Shown piece by piece: positions 5,705-46,569 of a DNA stretch of 60,028 nucleotides. Position 1 is the first letter of the stretch, and every line of letters starts with the position of its first letter. The stretch is taken from NCBI GenBank assembly GCA_043821485.1, contig JBDRCU010000038.1:1-60028 (forward strand). The letters run 5' to 3'. A program made the position numbers and the translations under genes. Below the pieces are notes generated by a model. That model was not told the DNA's origin. It searched no databases and was given only the letters and a program-made list of their open reading frames with translations. The DNA is from Parcubacteria group bacterium (GTDB lineage Bacteria; Patescibacteriota; Minisyncoccia; 2-02-FULL-40-12; IGHO2-01-FULL-4-A).

Positions 5705-6082
5705 ATGAAGGTAAAGATTCCTCCAGGCGAGATTCCTGTATCTCGTGGTGTTCTAGAGCGACTTTTTCCAAAAAACTTCGGCTCGGTCGAAGCGAGGCAA
5801 AATACCTGGCTGAGCGCTACAGGCGAACTTGCAGGAGAACAAGAGTCAGGAGGGTATAAACTACTTGGCGTCATTGGTTTGGGTGGCGGTGACGTCGAAC
5901 TGATAGGTAAGCTCTCCAGATACAGGGCCAAGGGTCCAGAACACCTCATTCGCCTGTTGCAAACAGTTATCTCAGACAAGCGTTGCGCTCAGGATGCCAT
6001 GGTGTCCTTTGCTCTCGAGGGAGAAGGAATTCTTGATATCGCTCCCGATCGTATCACTTCCAGACACAATCTTGGTTCCTGA
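5705..6082 (+). CDS. Hypothetical protein (~125 aa)
   Basis: Within ORF 5621..6082; AGAGAGGT SD before ATG 5705; downstream GCAGACG...CGTCTGC-ATTTTT stem. Confidence 0.55.
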   Translation: MKVKIPPGEIPVSRGVLERLFPKNFGSVEARQNTWLSATGELAGEQESGGYKLLGVIGLGGGDVELIGKLSRYRAKGPEHLIRLLQTVISDKRCAQDAMVSFALEGEGILDIAPDRITSRHNLGS

Positions 6083-6207
6083 TTGCATAGAGGAGCCGGT
6101 TGCGTGGAACACGTTCCTCTTGTCGCCTCAGCAGACGTACTCATTCCGAGTTATCCAGCTGGGGCGTCTGCATTTTTGACGAGATAATATGCTAAGATTA
6201 TTAAACA

Positions 6208-6960
6208 ATGTTTTATAAAACCCTTAAAGAATTTAAAGAAGATAACGGATACGAAATAGAAGGCATTTGGTATCCTCGTGTTACATCTATTGTTTCAATA
6301 AAAGCTAAACCGGCACTCCTTCACTATTATGGAGGTCACAAGAGCTATGCTCATGCAGAAGCTGCTATGAATCGTTCAGCAGAGGAAGGTACGCTAGTCC
6401 ATGAAGTAGTAGAGGCTATTTTCAATGGTGACTCCCCCGCTGTTCCGGAAGATATTGAGCCTGTCATTAGTGAATTTATAAGTTTTAATAATCAAAGAAA
6501 TATTATTGCTCATCAAATTGAGCCTCAAGTTATTAGTAAGAAGCATAATTATGCCGGCACACTAGATGTGATTGCAGAGATTGATGGAAAGCTTGGCGTT
6601 CTGGACATCAAAACATCACAAGCAATCTATAGAGATTATAATATTCAAACCGCCGCATATGTTGAAGCACTCAAAGAAGATGAATCTGTTCCAGAACTAA
6701 CTCGTTGGATACTTAGACTCGATCAATCACGGCCATGTCTTAATGGTTGTGGAGCGAAACTTCGTGAAAAAGGAGGGAATGTAAAAGTTTTAAACTCATG
6801 GAATGGTAAAGCCAGAACATGTTCGCATTCATGGGGACCTGTTACTGGCGAAGCTGAACTCAAAGAATTAGACAATCTCGAACACGACACCAAGGCATTC
6901 CTTGCAGCAAAACAACTCTGGGAATGGGAACACCATGAATGGTTAAGTCAGATTACCTAA
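6208..6960 (+). CDS. PD-(D/E)XK (RecB-family) nuclease-like protein
   Basis: PRVTSI, GTLVHE, YAGTLD...LDIKTS and Q-x-x-x-Y motifs typical of RecB/phage-exonuclease-like nucleases. Confidence 0.8.
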   Translation: MFYKTLKEFKEDNGYEIEGIWYPRVTSIVSIKAKPALLHYYGGHKSYAHAEAAMNRSAEEGTLVHEVVEAIFNGDSPAVPEDIEPVISEFISFNNQRNIIAHQIEPQVISKKHNYAGTLDVIAEIDGKLGVLDIKTSQAIYRDYNIQTAAYVEALKEDESVPELTRWILRLDQSRPCLNGCGAKLREKGGNVKVLNSWNGKARTCSHSWGPVTGEAELKELDNLEHDTKAFLAAKQLWEWEHHEWLSQIT

Positions 6961-35962: not shown

Positions 35963-36250
35963 AAAATGCTGAATTTAGCGAAAAAAAATGGCATGCCCAA
36001 TGGACATGTTTAATAAACTATAACAGTTTCTAATTAACTTGTCTAGCAAAAAGGGCTTAACAAAACCAATACCTAACTAAGTCTCTCGAAGGCCTTAAAA
36101 AATGGCTTGATGCGCCTATGCCTGAGAAATAGCTAGATTCTACTGAAAGAAACGAGATACTGGCTTTATTAAGCCCTAGATGGCTCAATAACGAAGTATT
36201 TAACTATAGCACCATTATATCAAATAATATCATCTTGTCAATAGTTGTCC

Positions 36251-37096
36251 TTACCTGTAGAGCTTTTTTATGCCAGTAATGTCCCCTGCGTTAAGATCTC
36301 TCTTTTTTATTTCTGCAAAATTAGCATACGCATACATAGTTTCATCCAGGCAACTACCTTCTGGGTGTCCCATTCCTGCAGCGTGTCCGACTTCATGTAC
36401 TGCAATGTTCTGAAAGTCCATTCTGCCATCAACTCCTATGACTTCCGTGCTCCAGTCAAAATCAGCTTCATCAAAAATCATATCCCACTCAACTAATGCT
36501 CTCTGCGAAGGAGGACCGCTAAAAATTCCCCACACAATAGTTACTGCAATTGCACCCTGACTTGATACGTCGCCAAAAAGCACCTCATTTTTTCCGTCTG
36601 GACTTGACTGATCCACGCCGTCAACAATGCCTGCTGCCTCTATTCCAAAAACATCCGCTGTAACTTCTCCGTCCCAAATTTCCACGCTTTCAGATAAAAG
36701 ACTTCTAAGTATTGTTTCATCCAAGTTTTCGCTATTGGTAGCATCAAAAAGATAATCTTCGGTACTGTTCCATTCGGCACCATTGGCTAAGAATGCATAA
36801 CAGGATGAGCCTCCTCCGGCTGGTTTACCTTTACCGTTGTCCTTTCCATTACTCTTTCCAAAATCTTTTTTATAATGGACAAAAGCGATACCCTCGACAG
36901 TCTTTCCGCTTGCGGGATCAAGAGCTGTTCCTAAAGAGATAACTGGAGAGTGATCGGCAGCTGGAGGAAGCAAAAGCGTTCTGTTCGTACCCGGAGTATT
37001 GAGTTCGGAAGACACCATATGCGGCATAGCAAAAACGGGGCTCACCGCAAGCATCATGCTTATTATTGATGATGTGGCAATAATCTTTTTAATCAT
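36251..37096 (-). CDS. Secreted matrixin-like zinc metalloprotease
   Basis: Signal peptide; HEVGHAAGMGH; TM Met-turn. Confidence 0.8.
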   Translation of the reverse strand: MIKKIIATSSIISMMLAVSPVFAMPHMVSSELNTPGTNRTLLLPPAADHSPVISLGTALDPASGKTVEGIAFVHYKKDFGKSNGKDNGKGKPAGGGSSCYAFLANGAEWNSTEDYLFDATNSENLDETILRSLLSESVEIWDGEVTADVFGIEAAGIVDGVDQSSPDGKNEVLFGDVSSQGAIAVTIVWGIFSGPPSQRALVEWDMIFDEADFDWSTEVIGVDGRMDFQNIAVHEVGHAAGMGHPEGSCLDETMYAYANFAEIKKRDLNAGDITGIKKLYR

Positions 37097-37146
37097 ATAA
37101 CTTAGATATTTAATATTATTTAATAATTATATCCTATCCAGTCTTT

Positions 37147-37175
37147 GAGTCCAATCGCCTCCAATATTCGAACCT
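37147..37175. repeat. Degenerate B repeat (left boundary)
   Basis: GAGTC-N13-TATTCGAACCT: same 29-bp length and both ends conserved versus B. Confidence 0.5.
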
Positions 37176-37183
37176 CTCTTACA

Positions 37184-37462
37184 TCATTCGGATGTGGGAT
37201 ATTGCTCTAATGTTTTCAGGGTCGCTTGCACGGATGAATTATCTGTGTTCAGAAAAGTTACAGTTTCATACGTCTCTTTGAGTCTGGTAATAACTTCATC
37301 GGCCCACGAAGGCGCCAAAACCTTTACGCCCTCAAAATCAACTTCGATCGGCTCTGTTTTTGATAAATCGCGCGTGATATACGCAGACAACGCTAAATAT
37401 GCTTCGCGGCCTGCGGGTCGAGATACCAATATATCACCAAATTTTTTGAGTTCAATGCGCAT
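37184..37462 (-). CDS. STAS-like DUF4325 protein
   Basis: L.SRPAGREA, DFEGV.V.APSWADE pattern; coupled to upstream ATPase-like gene. Confidence 0.75.
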   Translation of the reverse strand: MRIELKKFGDILVSRPAGREAYLALSAYITRDLSKTEPIEVDFEGVKVLAPSWADEVITRLKETYETVTFLNTDNSSVQATLKTLEQYPTSE

Positions 37463-37464
37463 TT

Positions 37465-38046
37465 TTAAAATGACAAAATCGCTAAACAACCCCGTATTTT
37501 TTCTCTCTCCTTTATCTCGATTGTAGTATTAAGTATTGCTTCCGCCGATCCAGAGCTAAAACTGAGATGCAATTTTTGATCTGATACGCTTTGCTTTACG
37601 AATTTAAGACCATTACCTCTGTTCTCTGGTGCACGTCCCGATAAACGCTGGGTAAAAGCTACCTCAAGTGCTTCTTTATCGTCCAATAAATCAGGCTTCA
37701 CCTTCCTAAGTGTTGTAAATACCCCACGTCCCCGGTCGGCCAAAACAATTTGTTTAGTATCTGATTCTAAATAGTACCCAAAAAAAATTCCAATCACATC
37801 GGGCCAGTTACCTATATTATGATCAAATGAATTGTTACCAATCTCACCGACAATTGCAGAGACAAGATAGGCAGTGTCTTCAGGGATCTGATCATTGTCC
37901 AATAGTTCGCTTGTTAATGAGTCTAATCGTGTTTGAAAAACATCTCGCGTCTCGCAATAGTATGGCTTATCAAGCGTAGTTACAAGAATAGGCTCGTCTT
38001 GCATCCATGCCGTAGCATTTTCTTGTAGTTTTGTCGTTTCTTTCAC
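37465..38046 (-). CDS. Histidine-kinase-like ATPase domain protein (anti-sigma/GHKL-like)
   Basis: EIGNNSFDHN, ADRGRG, GRAPENRGNGL motifs; GTG start. Confidence 0.7.
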   Translation of the reverse strand: MKETTKLQENATAWMQDEPILVTTLDKPYYCETRDVFQTRLDSLTSELLDNDQIPEDTAYLVSAIVGEIGNNSFDHNIGNWPDVIGIFFGYYLESDTKQIVLADRGRGVFTTLRKVKPDLLDDKEALEVAFTQRLSGRAPENRGNGLKFVKQSVSDQKLHLSFSSGSAEAILNTTIEIKEREKIRGCLAILSF

Positions 38047-38117
38047 AATATCTAAAGTATAGGATTAGCGGTAATAAATAGCAATATTATGATTCTCATA
38101 AGGACCTTCATTCGTCA

Positions 38118-38146
38118 GGGTCAGGAAGTACTAGCTGTTCGAACCT
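38118..38146. repeat. B repeat copy 1 (29 bp)
   Basis: GGGTCAGGAAGTACTAGCTGTTCGAACCT. Confidence 0.9.
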
Positions 38147-38186
38147 ATATTGTACAAATATAAATTTAATTATGAACAAAATGAGT

Positions 38187-38558
38187 CTATGATATTGATA
38201 TCATAACAAGAATCAAGAAGACAGTAATCGGCACTAGAGACAAGATACTCCGTCTTAGACCCTCTTCGTGAATGCCTCTCTTTCTTTTTAATCTTATTTG
38301 TATAATTCCTACAATCGAAAATATTGACCCCCAAAAAATGATTATCAAAAATATGAATTTGACTATATCTAGTACAGAGTCAATCAGATAATATATATCT
38401 GAATCAGACACCACTCTTCCCTCCATATCTGTAATAACAGGTGGTTCGATTCCAATACCAATTATAATTGCGAAAATAATCAAAACAACACCAATCAGTA
38501 CTATCCAAGAACCTATCAATGCAAACCTATTTAATTTTCCTTTATTGTCGGTATCCAT
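38187..38558 (-). CDS. Hypothetical membrane protein (3 TM)
   Basis: 123-aa hydrophobic ORF between A and B repeats. Confidence 0.7.
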   Translation of the reverse strand: MDTDNKGKLNRFALIGSWIVLIGVVLIIFAIIIGIGIEPPVITDMEGRVVSDSDIYYLIDSVLDIVKFIFLIIIFWGSIFSIVGIIQIRLKRKRGIHEEGLRRSILSLVPITVFLILVMISIS

Positions 38559-38577
38559 AATACTTTATAAGGTACCT

Positions 38578-38696
38578 CAAAATCCTATCATAATTCTATG
38601 ATCTCTACTATCTACAGTAAGCATGGTGCCGTCGTAAGGGATGTTAGAAGTATTTTTGAAAGGATGGATGACGCTACAGTCTACATTCCTACGATT
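38578..38696. repeat. A repeat copy 1 (119 bp)
   Basis: CAAAATCCTATCATAATTCTATGATC...GGTGCCGTCGT..GGGATGTTAGAAGTATTTTTGA...ACGATT. Confidence 0.9.
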
Positions 38697-38699
38697 TGA

Positions 38700-39032
38700 C
38701 TACTCGATTTGTATAACGGCAGACTTTTTGGCTCCATATTTATGTTTCATCCATTTCCTACATTCTTCAAGCATCCATAATCCATATTCGTTGTCTGGAA
38801 CAAGTTGAAAATCAACAGACCATTCTTCTTTATTCTTTTTTGATGGGGTCTTCAATAAAATAATTACATCTATATCCTGCGGTCTCGCTTTTGCTGTGGT
38901 AAAGCTACCAAGCAGGTGAATAGATGAGATGGGAAGTATTTTTTTTAATTTCCCTATCACGCCTTTAGCGTTTTTCCACATTTCTTTACGGTACTTCGTA
39001 TTAAGCATTTCTGGTGGCATAAATGATTTCAT
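38700..39032 (-). CDS. Minimal nucleotidyltransferase (MNT-like) domain protein
   Basis: LLGSF......DIDV...VD Pol-beta-type signature, 110 aa. Confidence 0.7.
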   Translation of the reverse strand: MKSFMPPEMLNTKYRKEMWKNAKGVIGKLKKILPISSIHLLGSFTTAKARPQDIDVIILLKTPSKKNKEEWSVDFQLVPDNEYGLWMLEECRKWMKHKYGAKKSAVIQIE

Positions 39033-39087
39033 AAATAAATTAATTAATCTATTCTTAACTCTTTATTTTTCCAACATCCCATAGGCA

Positions 39088-39116
39088 GGGTCAGGAAGTA
39101 CTAGCTGTTCGAACCT
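39088..39116. repeat. B repeat copy 2
   Basis: Identical to copy 1 over 33 bp (39086-39118 vs 38116-38148). Confidence 0.9.
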
Positions 39117-39177
39117 ATTTAATATATAAAATCTATAAAAATTTAAAAATATCACTGATTACTCTATACTCAAAATT

Positions 39178-39405
39178 TTATTTTAATAACTTCTCAAAAT
39201 CTTTTTTACTAAGCTGAACATCTCTTATTATTTTTCTTAAAAGTCCCTTGCCTATCTTTTTATGATCTGGGACTGTGATGGGCTTCTTACTCCCGTCTTG
39301 ATGATGCAACCTTATATGACTACCTTTTTTGCGGACAATAAAATAACCCATTTTCTCAAGGACTCTAATGATGCGAGATCCCGACAATTGTTTCAGAGAC
39401 GGCAT
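39178..39405 (-). CDS. hicA: HicA family toxin
   Basis: LEK.GY.IVR.KGSH..L.H......TVP.H..I.KG.L.KI. Confidence 0.88.
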   Translation of the reverse strand: MPSLKQLSGSRIIRVLEKMGYFIVRKKGSHIRLHHQDGSKKPITVPDHKKIGKGLLRKIIRDVQLSKKDFEKLLK

Positions 39406-39411
39406 TATTAG

Positions 39412-39657
39412 CTACAAGGTAATAGTATGTAAACTCATTTCCTGCGGTTTATACGAATTCACTATTTCACGATTTTCTTTCTCTTCAAGAATAAGGTTAA
39501 TTACTTCTCTTATGCCAACTAAGGCATCGTCCAATGTTTTTCCCTGGGTATAACACCCATCAAATAATGGACATTCTATAACATAAAAACCATCTTCGTC
39601 TTTTTCTACAAATAAAGGTAACTGGCGTCCGCGAATTGTAGTTAATGTCTTACGCAT
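39412..39657 (-). CDS. hicB: HicB family antitoxin (short form, upstream of toxin)
   Basis: EKDEDG.YV..CP.F.GCYTQG.TLD.AL..I.E; ATG 39657. Confidence 0.85.
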   Translation of the reverse strand: MRKTLTTIRGRQLPLFVEKDEDGFYVIECPLFDGCYTQGKTLDDALVGIREVINLILEEKENREIVNSYKPQEMSLHTITL

Positions 39658-39717
39658 AAAAAGAGTATACCACCCCAAAAAACTCTATGCAACCTCTACT
39701 CTTCTTCTACAAATCTA

Positions 39718-39746
39718 GGGTCAGGAAGTACTGGGTATTCGAACCT
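39718..39746. repeat. B repeat copy 3
   Basis: GGGTCAGGAAGTACTGGGTATTCGAACCT. Confidence 0.88.
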
Positions 39747-39772
39747 GTATTAGCTCATGAGTCTAAGTGAAA

Positions 39773-40180
39773 TTACAATGCTCTTATTTTTCCAACTACA
39801 TCGTAATACACATTCAAACCATAATAGTCGAGAGGGAGAGAGATGAATGAAGGCACTTGTTTTTCAAGAAGTACTCCTATCGCATAATCATTACTCTGGT
39901 CATCTGGTGCGTGCGGATCTAAAAGTCCTACCTTTGAAAGGCCTACCCCGTTAATATACTCCGACCAGGGTTCTTTGCTCATATATTCAACAACAAACTT
40001 ATTTTGAATAATTTCTGCTTCTTCTATAGTAATGGTGTCTGCCTCAGTAGTTTTTGAGTAATCTCTTTCTGTAAAATTGAGGACTGCATCCTCAGATGAT
40101 TTATCTCGAATTACGTAATAGAAAATCAATGAAAATAAAATCAGTATGATTATGATTAAATAAATTTGTCTTTTCTTCAT
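39773..40180 (-). CDS. Membrane-anchored hypothetical protein
   Basis: N-terminal TM; ATG 40180 lies 3 nt from A repeat copy 2. Confidence 0.7.
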   Translation of the reverse strand: MKKRQIYLIIIILILFSLIFYYVIRDKSSEDAVLNFTERDYSKTTEADTITIEEAEIIQNKFVVEYMSKEPWSEYINGVGLSKVGLLDPHAPDDQSNDYAIGVLLEKQVPSFISLPLDYYGLNVYYDVVGKIRAL

Positions 40181-40183
40181 ACT

Positions 40184-40302
40184 CAAAATCCTATCATAAT
40201 CCTATGATCTCTACTACCTACAATAAGCAGGGTGCCGTCGTGGGGGATGTTAGAAGTATTTTTGAGAGATTGAACGATGCGAGTGTTTACATACCGACGA
40301 TT
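40184..40302. repeat. A repeat copy 2 (119 bp)
   Basis: Same length as copy 1, high identity over the first ~85 bp; fills the whole intergenic gap. Confidence 0.9.
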
Positions 40303-40933
40303 ATGTCATAGCCGATAATATTGTTAAAATCTCTTCTGGGGTTCGTGCCAAATATTCAGGATTTTCTTTTTGTAATAGTTTTTCCGAATTATAGCCCCAA
40401 GTAATTGCAATAGTTTTTATATTTGCTTTTCTTGCTCCTATGATATCCCTATTCTCATCCCCAACATATAAAATCTCGACTGGCTTAATTTTATATTTTT
40501 TGCACATATTTTTCAAAATCAAGTGTTTGCCGAATATCGAACTACTGGAATAAATAAAATCAAAGTCATCTGCTATTCCGTATCTTCTCAAAACATTCGA
40601 GATATTTTCACTCGAGTTGCTTGAAACAATTCCGAGTTTATAATTACGACTCAGCTCTTGAAGTATCTGGGGCATATTAGGGAATAGCTTTATGTCCGTT
40701 TTCTTTCTCAGCTTAAAAAGAACATCTTTAACGAGTTTAGGAAGTTTCCAAAGAGGTATTCTTGCCCGCTTCATTAATCCCGAGATTCCATAATTCTTTA
40801 TATCATTCATATCGACATCGACTTCTTTGTCTGTTTTCAAGCCGTTCACAATATCCAGAACGTCCTTAAATGTATCTGCCATAGTCCCATCAAAATCAAA
40901 AACGATATATTTAATTGTCATTTTCTCACTCAT
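40301..40933 (-). CDS. HAD-IA family hydrolase (phosphoglycolate-phosphatase-like)
   Basis: FDFDGTMADT, VSSN, YVGDE.RD, TWGY. Confidence 0.9.
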   Translation of the reverse strand: MSEKMTIKYIVFDFDGTMADTFKDVLDIVNGLKTDKEVDVDMNDIKNYGISGLMKRARIPLWKLPKLVKDVLFKLRKKTDIKLFPNMPQILQELSRNYKLGIVSSNSSENISNVLRRYGIADDFDFIYSSSSIFGKHLILKNMCKKYKIKPVEILYVGDENRDIIGARKANIKTIAITWGYNSEKLLQKENPEYLARTPEEILTILSAMT

Positions 40934-41013
40934 TACTCAAATAGTAGCACGGCTTTTAAGATTTCTCTATCTATTTTCGACTTTCGAGACTCGAACCGAA
41001 TCTCTCAATATCG

Positions 41014-41068
41014 GAACCAAAAACACCCTGCTATTACAGGGTGGTTTTGATGTCATTCCACGATGGGT
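41014..41068. repeat. 55-bp copy of the tRNA-His 3' flank (hairpin plus TTCCACGATGGGT)
   Basis: 44/55 identical by manual count to 43113-43167. Confidence 0.85.
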
Positions 41069-41093
41069 CAGGAAGTACTGGCTGTTCGAACCT
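41065..41093. repeat. B repeat copy 4
   Basis: GGGTCAGGAAGTACTGGCTGTTCGAACCT. Confidence 0.9.
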
Positions 41094-41095
41094 GT

Positions 41096-41503
41096 TTATT
41101 TAAAATTCTTTAAAAAATTATCAATGGTTTTAACAGGGGCCCATCCTGTCCATGAAAATCTTTTTTGAAAATAATCGCTCTCTTGTCCGTTGATTTCTAA
41201 ATAGGTCCTCTTACTATTGGTTCTCATCTCTAGTGCTGCTTGTGGAAGATCGTAACTAACATCATATATAGAAATCTGTTTTCCTACCAATGTTCCCGCC
41301 AATAAATAAACTATATCACTGCCATCTTTATATTTTGGTCTAGAAAAACCAAAAAACTTTTTACCTTTATTATGACTTGTGAAACTTAGTCCATATTTAT
41401 TTGCTAGCTTATTAAGCTTATAGGTCCTAAGTAGATAGTGATTTATACAAAATACAACTGCAACAGCAAGTACTATAGATGAAATAATCCATGAAGTATC
41501 CAT
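41096..41503 (-). CDS. Membrane-anchored hypothetical protein
   Basis: N-terminal TM; ATG 41503 lies 3 nt from A repeat copy 3. Confidence 0.7.
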   Translation of the reverse strand: MDTSWIISSIVLAVAVVFCINHYLLRTYKLNKLANKYGLSFTSHNKGKKFFGFSRPKYKDGSDIVYLLAGTLVGKQISIYDVSYDLPQAALEMRTNSKRTYLEINGQESDYFQKRFSWTGWAPVKTIDNFLKNFK

Positions 41504-41506
41504 ATC

Positions 41507-41578
41507 CAAAATCCTATCATAATTCTATGATCGCTACTACCTACAATAAGCAGGGTGCCATCGTGGGGGATGTTAGAA
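41507..41578. repeat. A repeat copy 3 (72-bp core)
   Basis: CAAAATCCTATCATAATTCTATGATCGCTACTACCTACAATAAGCAGGGTGCCATCGTGGGGGATGTTAGAA. Confidence 0.88.
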
Positions 41579-41627
41579 CTAGGATTAGACAGTTTCAAGG
41601 GTATATCCGTCTTCCTATTGTTAGCAT

Positions 41628-42569
41628 TTAAGTTGCCGTATTTAATATTGCATCATAACCAATCTCACCTTTTCTAGCTAAACTTATATTTTCTTGTAAC
41701 GCTCCCTTTTTTTCTTTATCATCGCTTTGTAAAATCTCATGCATTGCCTTAAATGCCCGTTCTATATCACCTGCACCAACCGCTTCAATAAAAGCCTCTG
41801 CATCTAATGTTCTGCGAGCTTGTTCTTTGACATATTCATTCTTTAGCTCAGCGCTTTCAACAACCGCTTTACTGGCGTCAAGAAAGGCATCACGATATTT
41901 CAAATCGCCCTTTCTCATTTGATAAATACCAAAAGCTACAGCAATAAACTCCCTTGCTGACAATAGATTATTTTTTTCGCTATATCCTGCTTCATCAGAC
42001 TCTAAAATCGCACCTTTTTCCTTATTACTAAATTGATAAAGATGTGCTAACTCATGCGATAAAACATTTCGTAAATATACGTTTCTGTATGTTTCAACTG
42101 AACCCGTTGCATTATCACTATCTATCAACTCCCTCATCTCTACTCCGAGTTTATATAGCTTTCCATAAAACGTATTCTCCTTGAAAACGTCACTTGAAGG
42201 TAGGACAACAAACGGAGTCACGTCTTCAGGAACGATGGGGTATTCTTCTGAACTTCCATTAAGTTCTTGCGACCTGCCACCGATCTCAGAAGTAAAACGA
42301 GACCAGTTTTCTTTACATAAAATAACTACCCTTGCGGTAGCTCCTGCTTGTCTACTAGTATCTAAAGATTTTTTTATTTCAATTATGTGTTCAATATCTG
42401 AAGCATCAAGAGGCTCATCGCTGTACAGTTCAATCCCATTTGCAGTTAAATCTTGATTCTCATATTTACCTACATTTGTTTCAATCCAAAGAGAAGCGTC
42501 TCTGATTTGCCGTTTCCGTTTATCTTGCGGTAATTCTTGCTCTGCATTAGCCTTTGGCATTTCGTCCAT
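41628..42569 (-). CDS. Hypothetical protein with HExxH motif
   Basis: 313-aa ORF containing SHELAHLY...E. Confidence 0.7.
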   Translation of the reverse strand: MDEMPKANAEQELPQDKRKRQIRDASLWIETNVGKYENQDLTANGIELYSDEPLDASDIEHIIEIKKSLDTSRQAGATARVVILCKENWSRFTSEIGGRSQELNGSSEEYPIVPEDVTPFVVLPSSDVFKENTFYGKLYKLGVEMRELIDSDNATGSVETYRNVYLRNVLSHELAHLYQFSNKEKGAILESDEAGYSEKNNLLSAREFIAVAFGIYQMRKGDLKYRDAFLDASKAVVESAELKNEYVKEQARRTLDAEAFIEAVGAGDIERAFKAMHEILQSDDKEKKGALQENISLARKGEIGYDAILNTAT

Positions 42570-42606
42570 AGAATTTGTTAGATGGGTAACTCTTCATTTT
42601 GCATTA

Positions 42607-43074
42607 TCAGTTTCTATCTCCTAGGTCTTCATTGCTACTAAGATAAACCTTGTCATCGGAACAACTCATTGTTTGATAATCACCACGAGCATTAGTGAGT
42701 AAAACCTTAAAACCTCCTTCATCTGGATCTGGATCATCATGGAAGGTAATTTTCACTACTTTCCATCCTTTAGAAAGTCTTTCCTCTTTGTAATATGTTT
42801 GCATCGTTTCTAAGTCTTCCTTGTCACTTCCCGAAGCTTTCTTAATGGCATCGTTCCAAGTACTAAACTCTTCTTGCGGTGGTAGCAATACTTGGTCTCC
42901 TGTCTCCAAGTCGACTACTCCATGTCCTGCTAGTTCCTCTGACTCTTCAGGACTCATTTTTCTCGTACGTCCTGCTGTCTTATCTGCTGTATTCTTTGAA
43001 GGCAACGGGACTAAAGATTCTATTGTAGATTTTGCCATGTTGTATATGTTAGCTAATATCAAATTGTTGTTCAT
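42607..43074 (-). CDS. Acidic hypothetical protein
   Basis: 155-aa ORF; first gene downstream of tRNA-His, preceded by a partial A motif (43092-43108). Confidence 0.6.
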   Translation of the reverse strand: MNNNLILANIYNMAKSTIESLVPLPSKNTADKTAGRTRKMSPEESEELAGHGVVDLETGDQVLLPPQEEFSTWNDAIKKASGSDKEDLETMQTYYKEERLSKGWKVVKITFHDDPDPDEGGFKVLLTNARGDYQTMSCSDDKVYLSSNEDLGDRN

Positions 43075-43164
43075 ATCATAAGAGGATATATCAAAATCTT
43101 ATCATAATACTAGAACCAAAACCATCCTGAATTATCAGGATGATTTTGATGCGATTCCACGATG

Positions 43165-43236
43165 GGTGGCTAGAGGGAATTGAACCCTCGATTCCGCTGC
43201 CACAGAGCGGTGTTTTACCACTAAACTATAGCCACC
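43165..43236 (-). tRNA. tRNA-His(GTG)
   Basis: G-1, GTGGCTA/TAGCCAC acceptor stem, C73, anticodon arm CCGCT-CTGTGGC-AGCGG, TTCAATT loop. Confidence 0.93.
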
Positions 43237-43259
43237 ATAATAACCATATAATATGGTTG

Positions 43260-43332
43260 TCTCCCCGGAGGGAATCGAACCCCCAACCTACTGGTTAGAA
43301 ACCAGTTGCTCTATCCGTTGAGCTACGGGGAG
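43260..43332 (-). tRNA. tRNA-Arg(TCT)
   Basis: CTCCCCG acceptor, ACTGG-TTTCTAA-CCAGT anticodon arm, GGTTCGATTCC. Confidence 0.93.
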
Positions 43333-43410
43333 CTAAAATCAGATTATACTTTACCACTATTTTACTTGAACGTAAAGGAAAATAATGCTATCATTCTTTA
43401 ACTTTTGTCA

Positions 43411-43481
43411 CGGGCCGTGGTGTAATGGTAGCACGGGACGTTTGGGACGTTCTAGTCCGAGTTCGAGTCTCGGCGGCCCGA
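43411..43481 (+). tRNA. tRNA-Pro(TGG)
   Basis: CGGGCCG acceptor, anticodon loop TTTGGGA, GTTCGAGTC. Confidence 0.92.
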
Positions 43482-43503
43482 CAGAGTATTGCTTTAAAAT
43501 ATT

Positions 43504-43529
43504 AAAACCGCGCTATACAGCGCGGTTTT
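43504..43529. terminator. Bidirectional terminator
   Basis: AAAACCGCGC-TATACA-GCGCGGTTTT between convergent tRNA-Pro and ORF 43550. Confidence 0.75.
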
Positions 43530-43549
43530 AATATGGGTATCTTTGAAAA

Positions 43550-43756
43550 CTATTCTTCTGGAGCTACTTCAGGTGTCTCTTCGTCTAGTACATCTCCTTC
43601 ATCTACTGTACCCTCTACATCTCCGTCAGGGCTTACCTCTGGACTTACTTCACCAGAAACTTCCGGTGTTGGGGTCTCATCTGTTGTCTCTTCTCCGCCA
43701 CGGAATAAGAAGAACAATACAACGATGATGATAATGATGATAATTAATGCTTTCAT
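43550..43756 (-). CDS. Small membrane-anchored acidic protein (68 aa)
   Basis: N-terminal TM followed by E/D/P-rich tail. Confidence 0.65.
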   Translation of the reverse strand: MKALIIIIIIIVVLFFLFRGGEETTDETPTPEVSGEVSPEVSPDGDVEGTVDEGDVLDEETPEVAPEE

Positions 43757-43843
43757 CGGTTTTATATTATTAAATAATAAATCGTCGAATTCGACCGTAC
43801 TGCAATGGTTTATAACATCCCTAGATTAAAAACACAACCTTGA

Positions 43844-44326
43844 CTATTCAACAATTATGGTGCCTTTATGAGATGGGCTAAGGTGATTATGATAAGACCA
43901 TTCACCTAGCTCATCAAATGTAAAGGTCCATGCTAGGCCTGGAATCTTGCCTATACATGAATCGAATACAACTTCACGTTCTGATTCTTCAAGGTCACAC
44001 TTCTCTATACCGGAATTAGGATAAGCAGTATGTGTTGGATGAACATCTGACGCAGTCCATAAGTCTTGAGTGCTTTGATTGTTAAATACAACTGTATCCC
44101 CTTTTTGAATTCTAACTGTTTGAGGTGAATAACCAATATCTGTATATTTTACAAAATACAGTTCACCCTCATATATTATTTCTGGTTTGCCTATTTGGGT
44201 TAGCGTTGCATCAGCAGATCCATTATCACCATCCCGATCCTCTGACCCGCCTGTCATCACAAAAAAGAGAACAACAAGCAATATCATGATCGCTACTATG
44301 AGTAAAATTAAATAAGAAGTTTTCAT
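43844..44326 (-). CDS. Membrane-anchored cupredoxin-like protein
   Basis: GYSPQTV.I.KGDTV.F.N...F.F...G.W.YHNHL......G.I.VE pattern. Confidence 0.7.
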   Translation of the reverse strand: MKTSYLILLIVAIMILLVVLFFVMTGGSEDRDGDNGSADATLTQIGKPEIIYEGELYFVKYTDIGYSPQTVRIQKGDTVVFNNQSTQDLWTASDVHPTHTAYPNSGIEKCDLEESEREVVFDSCIGKIPGLAWTFTFDELGEWSYHNHLSPSHKGTIIVE

Positions 44327-44405
44327 ATTAAAATTATACGACACAAAAGGATCTATTACTATAGAAATCTGTTTATACTTCTGATATTATAGAATCCACA
44401 CGCAT

Positions 44406-44480
44406 GCGGGTATCGTATAGTGGCTATTATATTTGCCTTCCAAGCAAAAGACAGGGGTTCGACTCCCCTTACCCGCTCCA
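44406..44480 (+). tRNA. tRNA-Gly(TCC), CCA encoded
   Basis: GCGGGTA acceptor, TTTGC-CTTCCAA-GCAAA, GGTTCGACTCC, ends TCCA. Confidence 0.94.
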
Positions 44481-44539
44481 ATAAAAGACTCCGCTTTTGG
44501 CGGAGCTCTTTTATTTTTATAAACTCAATACGTATCGTC

Positions 44540-44821
44540 TTATAATACTGCCTCCTTGAGTGCTTTCGAAGGCGTGAACTTCGCTTTCTTGGAAGCCTTA
44601 ATGTGAATCGCTTCTCCTGTCTTTGGGTTTCTGCCCATTCTTGCTTTACGGTCTGCTACCTTGAAGATTCCAAATCCGCTCAAATTGAGCTTATCTCCTG
44701 TCTTCATAATCTTCAAAATCTCATCCAGCATCATTTCTATAGTCTCTCCTGCTTTTTTCTTTGGCATCTCCCACTTCTCTGCCATTAAAGCAGTGAACTG
44801 GTTCTTTGTTACTGATTTCAT
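44540..44821 (-). CDS. hup: HU family DNA-binding protein
   Basis: GFG.FKV..R.AR.GRNP.TGE.I.I.A.....F...K.LK. Confidence 0.93.
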   Translation of the reverse strand: MKSVTKNQFTALMAEKWEMPKKKAGETIEMMLDEILKIMKTGDKLNLSGFGIFKVADRKARMGRNPKTGEAIHIKASKKAKFTPSKALKEAVL

Positions 44822-45036
44822 ATGTTCTTTACTTCTAAAACTCTGGCAAGCAACTTGGAGTTGCTTAGCCAATAAGGCTTTAGAATAAAATTATAGATTG
44901 AGAACTTTTTGCACACGAGATACTTGACCATAGGTATCATTCGTGTCTTTTTGGTTTCCAAAATACTTATGCCTAGAATTTTACTTATTTTATAAGGGTT
45001 TTTCAACCTTCCTGTGCATAACTTCTTCTAGGTGCA

Positions 45037-46569
45037 TTATCTTGCATGCTCAATAGCACGCGTCTCTCTTATTACTGTCACCTTGATTTCACCTGGATAT
45101 TTCATCTCTAATTCTATTTTTTTCGCTACATCGCGGGCTAATTTCATTGCAGAAAGATCATCAATCTTTGTAGGGGTAACAAATATACGCAATTCTCTTC
45201 CAGCTTGTACTGCATAGGATTTTTCAACTCCTTCAAATGAAGTTGCAATACGTTCAAGGTCTTCCAATCTCTTAATATACACTTCTACAGTGTCTCTACG
45301 CGCTCCTGGACGTGCAGCAGATATAGCGTCAGCAGTTTGAACAATGCGCGACTCAAGCGACGTATAAGGATATTCCTCATGATGGGATTCCATTGCCTTT
45401 ACTACGGCATCGTCAACGTTAAACTTTTGCAATAACTTCCTCCCTATCTCAACATGAGTACCTTGCACTTCATGATCAACTGCTTTACCAATATCATGAA
45501 ATAGTGCGCCTTTTTTAGCGATACTCACATCGGCACCAAGTTCAGTTGCGAGGATTCCTGCAATATGAGCCATCTCAATGGAATGTATAAGTACATTTTG
45601 TCCAAAACTTGTACGGAATGCTAAGCGTCCAAGCAGAAAGGTAAGTTTTGGATCGATTGTTCCTATCCCAACTTCAAAAGCTGCTGCCTCTCCTGCCTGT
45701 TGAATCTTTTCAGTAAGCTCTTCTTTCGCTTTTTCAACCATTTCTTCAATCTTCGCCGGATGGATTCTACCATCAGCAATAAGCTTATCTAGAGCAAGTT
45801 TGGCTACTTGTCTTCTGACTGGGTCAAATCCGGAAATCACGAGGGTCTCAGGCGTGTCATCAATAATGATATCTACTCCAGTGAGACGTTCTATTGTTTT
45901 GATATTACGTCCTTCTTTTCCGATTATCTTACCCTTCAATTCGTCCGAGGGGAGACTTACTACGGTCGTGGTAGCATCAGAAATATGCGAACCCGCATAT
46001 CTTTGTACAGCGAGCGTAAGAAGTTCTTTAGCCTTCTTATCTATCTCTTCCTGACTGCCTCGTTCAAGTTTCATTGTCTTTTCACGAAGCTCTTCTGTAA
46101 ATTCTTCTTCCAAATTTGCAAAAAGCTGTTTCTTTGCTTCATCTTTTTCAAGTCCTGCAATCTTCTGTAACTTTTCTATCTGTTGCTCGCGCTTTTCTTC
46201 AATCTGAACTAATACCTCTTTGACTTTTTCTGTCTTTTCCGTAAGAGATATTTTTTCTTGTTCAAGTTCTTTAACGCGAGTATCTAATTCAACCTCTTTT
46301 TTAGAAAGCAAACTTTCTATCTTCGCAAGATGCTTGTTCCGTTCCTCCTCCTGCTTCTTGGCATCTTCAAGAATACTAAAGGCTTTATCTTTAGTCTCAA
46401 GTAATACGTCTTGTGCTTTTGCCTTGGCTTCAGAAAGCAAACGTTCCGCACGCTCTCGTGCAGAAGTAACCTTTTTAGTAGTTAAAAATCTATCTAATAG
46501 ATATCCTAAAACGATACCAAATGCCAAGAATAGAAGTCCTTCTAATAAGGGATTTATTCCCGCTAACAT
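45037..46569 (-). CDS. rny: Ribonuclease Y
   Basis: TM, coiled coil, KH (KGKIIGKEGRNI), HD (HDIGK), AGRELRI. Confidence 0.96.
   Translation of the reverse strand: MLAGINPLLEGLLFLAFGIVLGYLLDRFLTTKKVTSARERAERLLSEAKAKAQDVLLETKDKAFSILEDAKKQEEERNKHLAKIESLLSKKEVELDTRVKELEQEKISLTEKTEKVKEVLVQIEEKREQQIEKLQKIAGLEKDEAKKQLFANLEEEFTEELREKTMKLERGSQEEIDKKAKELLTLAVQRYAGSHISDATTTVVSLPSDELKGKIIGKEGRNIKTIERLTGVDIIIDDTPETLVISGFDPVRRQVAKLALDKLIADGRIHPAKIEEMVEKAKEELTEKIQQAGEAAAFEVGIGTIDPKLTFLLGRLAFRTSFGQNVLIHSIEMAHIAGILATELGADVSIAKKGALFHDIGKAVDHEVQGTHVEIGRKLLQKFNVDDAVVKAMESHHEEYPYTSLESRIVQTADAISAARPGARRDTVEVYIKRLEDLERIATSFEGVEKSYAVQAGRELRIFVTPTKIDDLSAMKLARDVAKKIELEMKYPGEIKVTVIRETRAIEHAR

Follow-up and report, generated by a model that had tools for sequence, protein, structure and literature searches.

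Directly behind the tRNA-His gene of an uncultured, Yanofskybacteria-like member of the Patescibacteria (Paceibacteria) from groundwater, we identified a 62-nt sequence that recurs about 2.1 kb further on. We favor, with moderate confidence, the explanation that its two copies, here called T1 and T2, are the attL- and attR-like junction repeats of a recombinational insertion, by which a 2.1-kb module without a recombinase gene was placed at the extreme 3′ end of the tRNA gene. The DNA concerned is a 60-kb window, i.e. the whole stretch of 60,028 nt analyzed from contig JBDRCU010000038.1, and all statements on the gene island below refer to this window. Since it contains housekeeping genes such as those for RNase Y, BipA, AlaRS and ribosomal proteins, the contig represents chromosomal DNA. 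The module forms the tRNA-proximal unit of an island of about 6 kb, which lies behind tRNA-His and is composed of small, co-oriented units on the minus strand. The two junctions are defined by the following features:

43164–43235, minus strand: tRNA-His (GTG), found by ARAGORN and matching Rfam RF00005 with 70.3 bits; junction 1 has its 3′ end, ...GCCACCC, on the left.
43106–43167, minus strand: T1, the 62-nt repeat copy right behind tRNA-His, consisting of ACCC, ATCGTGGAAT, a 12-bp hairpin (43118–43147) and a U tract.
41065–41093, minus strand: B4, a 29-nt cassette-end site; its end ...CTGACCC is the left side of junction 2.
41007–41068, minus strand: T2, the second 62-nt copy, with its hairpin at 41019–41048 and a terminator-like call on both strands.

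A previous, sequence-only reading of this DNA had reported an ungapped match between 41014–41068 and 43113–43167 with 44 of 55 positions identical, and our recomputation yielded the same value. With a repeat finder, the repeat extends to 62 nt in either copy at 77% identity (family D9). A BLAST comparison of the tRNA-His flank with the whole window resulted in an E value of 4e-10, and the Smith-Waterman score of the repeat pair was reached by none of 2000 shuffles. On the gene strand, tRNA-His ends with TCTAGCCACCC and is followed by ATCGTGGAAT, while B4 ends with CTTCCTGACCC and is followed by ATCGTGGAAT as well; the junction sequences are those quoted in the earlier reading. The gene strand continues with ATCGTGGAATCGCATCAAAATCATCCTGATAATTCAGGATGGTTTTGGTTC past tRNA-His and with ATCGTGGAATGACATCAAAACCACCCTGTAATAGCAGGGTGTTTTTGGTTC past B4, and the two junctions are 2,099 nt apart. 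The homology opens exactly at ACCC, the last bases of both tRNA-His and B4, and upstream of ACCC the two are unrelated. As tRNA-His is encoded on the minus strand, the repeat corresponds to the 3′ flank of the tRNA gene plus its last 4 nt. ACCC is common to the tRNA-His end, to all well-conserved B copies and to the first bases of the T homology, and the overlap of the latter with the conserved B end is exactly these four bases, a coincidence to be expected in 1 of 256 cases. The longest perfect run between T1 and T2 measures 14 nt, and the best-conserved stretch of the repeat is not the stem but the unstructured 14-nt leader ACCCATCGTGGAAT. About 20 nt past T2, the 12-nt sequence GTTCGAGTCTCG (40985–40996) matches the T arm of tRNA-Pro from the window at all positions (E 0.67) and could be a decayed partial tRNA or a chance match.

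Both copies are predicted to form a hairpin with a 12-bp stem, a 6-nt loop and a U-rich tail, the folding energy of which is −26.2 kcal/mol for T1 (z −4.8) and −22.0 kcal/mol for T2 (z −2.9). With the U tracts GGUUUUGGUU in T1 and GUUUUUGGUU in T2, each combines the stem-loop and U tract of an intrinsic (Rho-independent) terminator, and a pattern scan classified both as terminator-like. T1 and T2 differ at 2 of 20 nt in the leader, 4 of 24 nt in the stem (both strands), 5 of 6 nt in the loop and 6 of 18 nt in the tail. The four stem substitutions are confined to two base pairs, for which the chance is 0.006 if four substitutions fall randomly within the stem. One of these pairs is compensatory (U-A to C-G; CATCCTG/CAGGATG versus CACCCTG/CAGGGTG), exactly the paired swap described before. 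In the second pair both sides have changed as well, from U-G to a C·U mismatch, and pairing is not restored. This single compensatory event between two sequences is suggestive of a structural constraint on the hairpin, and the earlier claim of a selected terminator stands as a prediction drawn from the hairpin folding and this one pair. The substitution pattern would fit two terminators that had diverged in different lineages, with their structure under constraint, prior to the arrival of the module. Since an A tract, a GC-rich stem and a T tract are generic to terminators, two independent intrinsic terminators might have come to resemble each other by chance or convergence. The BLAST and shuffling results effectively refute this idea; in addition, the 14-nt leader is conserved outside the stem and the remaining terminators of the window are unrelated to T in sequence.

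Between T1 and T2, the module is organized as follows, with B4 at its distal end:

43091–43112, minus strand: remnant of an A-type promoter and 5′ untranslated region (TAGTATTATGATAAGATTTTGA), fused to T1 and located upstream of orf155.
42607–43074, minus strand: orf155, an orphan that is the module's first gene, taken from the list of open reading frames (ORFs); exact metatranscriptome contigs at 42728–42881 and 42917–43081.
41628–42569, minus strand: orf313, the largest gene of the module, with a conserved SHE[LM]AHLYQFS (HExxH) motif; shared with two other tRNA-adjacent loci.
41505–41625, minus strand: A3, a promoter/operator repeat (family D2) carrying an inverted CCATCGTGG motif.
41096–41509, minus strand: orf137a, a small predicted membrane protein; an exact DNA contig of run X4 covers 41170–41416.

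None of these three ORFs contains a recombinase or transfer domain. For orf155, neither a Pfam family nor a homologue among 5.8 billion proteins was found. The 22 nt following T1 are identical at 20 of 22 positions to the 3′ ends of the three A repeats of the island (A1–A3; BLAST E 0.001–0.005), a score reached by none of 2000 shuffles, and T2 possesses no such A-type tail. Since the 5′ part of T1 matches T2 and the next 22 nt match A, T1 is a hybrid of the T hairpin and a cassette-type promoter. This is the expected appearance of an element-derived side of a junction and hence supports an insertion. Moreover, T is 23% diverged while the B copies are nearly identical, which indicates that T1 and T2 already differed when they were joined; judged by their sequences, they look like orthologous terminators of two lineages rather than a recent target duplication.

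The same data bear on a local tandem duplication, according to which an ancestral unit of T, cargo, A, small ORF and B was duplicated in place and diverged for a long time while its coding parts were replaced, so that T1 and T2 would be paralogous. The layout of T1, orf155 and orf313, A3, orf137a and B4 indeed runs parallel to that of T2, a HAD hydrolase gene, A2, orf137b and B3 in the adjacent unit, and both small ORFs are listed at 137 aa. However, the gene bodies lack detectable similarity, the A-type tail is present on T1 only, and the 77% identity of T compared to 28 of 29 identical positions between B4 and either B1 or B2 means that the parts do not share one divergence time. As relatives of orf313 are, in addition, independently linked to tRNAs in other phyla-level lineages, we consider a tandem duplication improbable and the weaker of the two rivals to be taken into account besides the insertion.

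The orf313 family provides a link to tRNA 3′ ends that reaches beyond this genome. In a search of 5.8 billion proteins and of one genome for each of 185,579 species, only two relatives were obtained, and all three family members adjoin the 3′ end of a tRNA gene: tRNA-His in the window, tRNA-Arg in the second locus (L162) and tRNA-Val in the third (L163, a metagenome-assembled genome, MAG, of the Moraniibacteriota). In L162, the relative (1455–2519) starts 12 nt past tRNA-Arg. In L163, 16 nt of the tRNA-Val 3′ end recur as an exact direct copy 1.03 kb downstream, and the relative (5817–6938) occupies the space in between; by its sequence, this locus is an insert of a single gene that lacks a recombinase and is bounded by att-type repeats of the classical form. 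Roughly 5% of the genes in such genomes neighbor a tRNA 3′ end by our own estimate, and on this basis it is unlikely that three of three members do so by chance. The protein has no match in Pfam, PADLOC or the PDB sequences, and with its AlphaFold model (pLDDT, the predicted local distance difference test, 70) Foldseek retrieved nothing at E ≤0.001. The right end of the L163 insert shares 14 nt with A1, but this match (1 of 1000 shuffles, one of 10 comparisons) was too weak and was not used.

The island has a GC content of 0.36 compared to 0.39 in its flanks. Counted from the tRNA, it consists of these units:

Unit c4, minus strand: T1, orf155, orf313, A3, orf137a, B4.
37147–41064, minus strand: the older cassettes as a whole, c3 to c0.
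Unit c3, minus strand: T2, HAD hydrolase, A2, orf137b, B3 (39718–39746).
40301–40933, minus strand: the HAD-IA hydrolase, first gene of c3 (Pfam HAD_2, 4.8e-33; exact RNA contig 40591–40795).
Unit c2, minus strand: HicB, HicA, B2 (39088–39116).
Unit c1, minus strand: DUF6932 nucleotidyltransferase, A1, orf123, B1 (38118–38146).
Unit c0, minus strand: HATPase_c_2, DUF4325 (STAS-like), degenerate B0 (37147–37175).

All five units end in B...ACCC, with B0 being degenerate, and they form a co-oriented array as is typical of integrons and of clusters of attC sites lacking integron integrases (CALINs). Four copies of B (gene strand AGGTTCGAACAGCTAGTACTTCCTGACCC) occur with 0–3 mismatches, where 0 are expected by chance. 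A is a promoter/operator repeat of about 120 nt (38576–38696, 40182–40302 and 41505–41625) that precedes three unrelated small membrane-protein ORFs, each of which ends in B; the body of orf137a shows no relationship to the ORFs that follow A1 and A2. The cassettes thereby bear promoter-like sites of their own. Within A, a perfect ATCATA-N4-TATGAT palindrome lies over a −10-like box, and a pair of inverted motifs of about 17 nt (ATCGTAGGAATGTAGA and its complement) is spaced by about 38 nt. The B copies do not fold (z +0.2 to +1.2 versus shuffles) and the 5′ parts of A are not more stably folded than their shuffles on either of the strands; an attC-like hairpin in A or B was rejected as a candidate for this reason. 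The idea that B copies the 3′ end of tRNA-His was likewise rejected, given that 1130 of 2000 shuffles score equally and no Rfam tRNA match was found at E ≤10.

T and A share a short edge motif, as T1 and T2 begin with ATCGTGGAAT after ACCC, A1 with ATCGTAGGAAT and A2 with ATCGTCGGTAT; A1–A3 hold this motif a second time, inverted. For CCRTCGTGG, the window contains four copies, all of them within the island, compared to 0.29 expected. GGGATGTT[AG]GA is likewise present four times (0.075 expected); three of its copies lie in A and one lies 7 nt past B2...ACCC. Since the edge motif was defined after the data had been seen, it is only a candidate for a protein-binding site. The cassette that follows B2 opens with TGCCTATGGGATGTTGGA (39072–39091), which is a copy of the inverted motif of A, here on the gene strand, with the same 7-nt gap to a CC dinucleotide. 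In c0 (37184–38046), the HATPase_c_2-like protein (193 aa) overlaps the DUF4325 STAS-like protein (101 aa), and an exact contig of the metatranscriptome covers the upstream end; judged from the domain matches, this cargo resembles an anti-sigma/antagonist-like pair.

To search for an empty insertion site, 160 loci anchored at the RNase Y gene (rny) were fetched from genomes and metagenomes. The RNase Y of the window is about 70% identical to proteins of Candidatus Yanofskybacteria and other Paceibacterota MAGs, and this is also the level of the nearest fetched locus. None of 12 island proteins was found in these 160 loci, including the position beside the tRNA cluster, nor were homologues of A, B or T. 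The prediction that relatives carry tRNA-His directly followed by the HAD module was not borne out in this sample, the reason being that the nearest genomes sampled share only about 70% RNase Y identity. The nearest HAD homologues (59–60% identical) belong to variable gene sets 1–3.5 kb downstream of tRNA-Gln in other Patescibacteria, and not behind tRNA-His. These sets look like another tRNA-linked variable spot; they (L164 2991–5327, L167 2427–4606 and L168 471–4609) harbor an NYN-domain gene alongside, with a GIY-YIG gene in one and a reverse-transcriptase gene in another.

The window carries four clustered tRNA genes, for His (minus strand), Arg (minus strand), Pro (plus strand) and Gly (plus strand), and in the corresponding rny-hup-tRNA(Gly/Pro/Arg/His) neighborhood of the relatives the orientation and spacing of the tRNA genes vary, with inserts of 0–5 kb between them. 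A scan of 244 tRNA genes in the fetched loci revealed many direct repeats of a tRNA end and its flank shortly downstream. In L110 (15350–16436), a 25-nt direct repeat that opens with the last 5 nt of tRNA-Pro recurs 1,062 nt apart around one membrane-protein ORF; in L078 the tRNA-His end together with a terminator hairpin (58 nt) is repeated 233 nt away, and in L070 42 nt behind tRNA-Gly are duplicated. These scars indicate that the junction geometry of the window is recurrent in the group. In addition, we observed hairpin-rich mini-inserts of about 105–125 nt behind tRNA-His or tRNA-Gly (L078 18780–19070 and 14146–14397, L070 13178–13425, L064 13738–13842), bracketed by exact or near-exact repeats (42–58 nt) of the tRNA end and terminator; their copies are related to each other (L070 and L064 at 86%, the two L078 copies at 75%). 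Within the window itself, tRNA-Pro and tRNA-Gly are about 920 nt apart (43483–44405), and the sequence between them contains orf98 and orf166, the latter encoding a secreted or membrane protein. As this gap amounts to 14–95 nt in the relatives L076, L104/L105 and L007/L096, the 920 nt are probably another insert in the tRNA cluster; homologues of orf166 occur in L001 and L019.

A serious rival, though in our view an unlikely one, is modular shuffling by RecA-type homologous recombination between the reusable linkers T, A and B, which would need neither a site-specific system nor a defined crossover at CCC. The ends A and B are conserved around unrelated ORF bodies, the cassettes have promoter-like sites of their own, no recombinase lies nearby, and T1, in which a conserved piece of a promoter follows a stem-loop terminator, has the architecture of the promoter–stem-loop elements (PeSLs) of T4-type phages. 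In these phages, composites of a terminator stem-loop and a conserved promoter lie between small variable genes, and recombination between copies gives rise to mini-circles (PMC2839356, PMC4122927). T1 likewise is set among small, variable and often orphan genes. In contrast to PeSLs, the present array is located on a bacterial chromosome, comprises two terminator copies (T2 without the tail) and three A copies, and is linked both to the end of a tRNA and to a distinct 29-nt site. Furthermore, only two T copies exist, and at 77% identity with a longest perfect run of 14 nt they would be a poor substrate for RecA. The edge of the homology falls precisely where both the tRNA gene and B end, the overlap being 4 nt, and linker shuffling does not predict that the orf313 relatives are tied to tRNA 3′ ends or that related genomes carry similar scars.

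For the insertion at the tRNA-His end, we propose the following course. The incoming DNA would have carried B, followed by its own diverged copy of the sequence downstream of tRNA-His, i.e. ACCC, ATCGTGGAAT and an intrinsic terminator, and the exchange would have taken place in or beside the common ACCC/ATCGTGGAAT core, catalyzed by a recombinase encoded elsewhere. After the exchange, the tRNA would retain a working terminator (T1, now fused to the promoter of the module), and the displaced terminator T2 would end the module transcripts ahead of the HAD cassette. The module would then be the newest layer of the island, the cassettes of which are self-contained and include toxin-antitoxin, nucleotidyltransferase and HAD genes, among others, and the cassette that had been first before would have been displaced. 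The repeat, its exact boundaries, both predicted hairpins, the anatomy of the cassettes, the lack of a recombinase in the 60-kb window and the tRNA linkage of the orf313 family are observations; the insertion event itself, the catalysis from elsewhere, the place of the crossover and the termination by the hairpins are inferred. The sequence-only reading had already postulated an insertion of about 2.1 kb at the CCC. The insertion gains from the tRNA linkage of orf313, the geometry of L110 and the lack of the island genes in the 160 loci, although an empty site did not turn up; a crossover at CCC is plausible in light of the 4-nt ACCC overlap, but the exchange could lie anywhere in the 14-nt block or the 62-nt repeat.

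Several observations weigh against this explanation. T1 and T2 are merely 77% alike, the part of the duplication derived from the tRNA is only 4 nt, unlike in classical att sites, and B is not recognizably tRNA-like. No recombinase or transposase family was detected in any ORF of at least 100 aa in the 60 kb or in any ORF of the island, and no empty-site allele was present in the related loci sampled. Neither a structural variant nor a circular junction of B4 with T1 (...CTTCCTGACCC followed by ATCGTGGAATCGC) appeared among the few short exact contigs of the runs holding the organism, which are one RNA run and one DNA run without a read across the junctions. In the genome, metagenome and viral contig collections, the B pattern had 0 matches and the T junction pattern yielded one chance match only, in an Acidobacteria MAG. 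Finally, no T-like remnant follows B0–B3. Hence the older cassettes did not arise from the same T-to-T event, and a single simple repeated mechanism fails to explain the whole array; these junctions may reflect either another type of exchange (in the manner of integrons, between two B sites or between B and the tRNA end) or a loss of the repeats.

A more far-reaching idea, which we regard as rather doubtful, is that Patescibacteria capture genes in an integron-like manner without attC hairpins. The tRNA-His 3′ end together with ATCGTGGAAT as an 'L-box' would serve as the primary site, the cassettes would carry the 29-nt B ending in ACCC and often an L-box at their head, and a recombinase encoded elsewhere would exchange between ACCC and the following nucleotide, thereby stacking promoter-bearing mini-cassettes of 0.6–2.1 kb, with orf313 as a hallmark and possibly a mobility gene. 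A cassette excised from the first position would in that case take the tRNA terminator along, so that T would reappear after B4. Integrons are defined by a gene for the IntI integrase, next to which an attI site and a Pc promoter are located, and their attC sites are imperfect inverted repeats of 55–140 nt that fold as single-stranded hairpins. The island resembles integron arrays and CALINs in that co-oriented cassettes each end in a conserved site and include toxin-antitoxin and orphan cargo, in that insertions at one fixed proximal point would move older cassettes to distal positions, and in the very short core common to the primary and the cassette site (ACCC here, GTT in integrons). It differs in that B has 29 nt and neither B nor A folds into a hairpin of the attC type, promoter-like sites are part of the cassettes themselves, a tRNA end takes the place of an attI beside intI as the anchor, and no IntI-type recombinase was found in the window.

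Compared to characterized tandem islands at tRNA and tmRNA genes, the module shares the insertion directly behind a stable-RNA gene, direct repeats at the edges, a newer unit nearest to the tRNA, some units without a recombinase and a cargo of defense, toxin-antitoxin or accessory genes. In the Dehalococcoides ssrA islands, each direct repeat is immediately preceded by a conserved motif that belongs to the element, and an integration module is missing from 15 islands (PMC3146451); such a motif upstream of the displaced repeat (15 bp there) has its counterpart in B. In the tycheposons of Prochlorococcus, newcomers push older elements away from the tRNA (bioRxiv 10.1101/2020.12.28.424599). Unlike in these islands, the 62-nt direct repeats that bound the 2.1 kb include only the ACCC of the tRNA and otherwise its 3′ flank, being essentially the downstream terminator; they are 77% and not nearly identical, the units measure only 0.6–2.1 kb, and the older units end in B without a copy of the repeat. 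While T1 abuts the tRNA 3′ end as in tRNA-targeting elements, starting in its last 4 nt, no tyrosine or serine integrase was detected in any island ORF or in any other ORF of at least 100 aa in the window. As in cis-mobilizable elements (CIMEs), att-like repeats are present at both ends, with no genes for recombination or transfer in between. CIMEs are mobilized by the integrase of a related autonomous element; no autonomous relative of the module was found. The accretion and CIME model has been reviewed (PMC5704250). Overall, the evidence partly supports a known kind of tRNA-end integration scar, here within an unusual recombinase-less mini-cassette array of a bacterium of the candidate phyla radiation (CPR).

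Besides the proteins named above, the window encodes iPGM, MnmA, MreB, RpoA, a sortase and cell-envelope glycosyltransferases. A phage origin was rejected, as a megablast search of 36000–46000 against 50,697 phage records gave 0 matches. Exact pieces of the window are present in groundwater metagenome runs and in one groundwater metatranscriptome. Exact low-depth contigs of the latter, assembled at 2–6× depth, cover parts of the HATPase, HAD, orf313 and orf155 genes, and none of them crosses T1 or T2; they are consistent with expression of these four genes, with carry-over of DNA being possible.

Nowhere else in the tRNA-His island can an old flank be compared with a new one at the level of single bases. 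The junction pins the candidate crossover to a core of 4–14 nt (ACCC followed by ATCGTGGAAT) and ties the 29-nt B physically to the tRNA end, and the arrangement would keep a terminator for the tRNA operon and provide one for the module. Were it merely the scar of a decayed island, it would be ordinary, and its interest lies mainly in the larger cassette system. Patescibacteria (CPR) have tiny genomes with few recognizable mobile elements, and for this reason the acquisition of accessory and defense genes in these bacteria is poorly understood. The orf313 family and the scars in relatives suggest that recombinase-less mini-cassettes at the ends of stable-RNA genes may be a general route of gene flux in this group.

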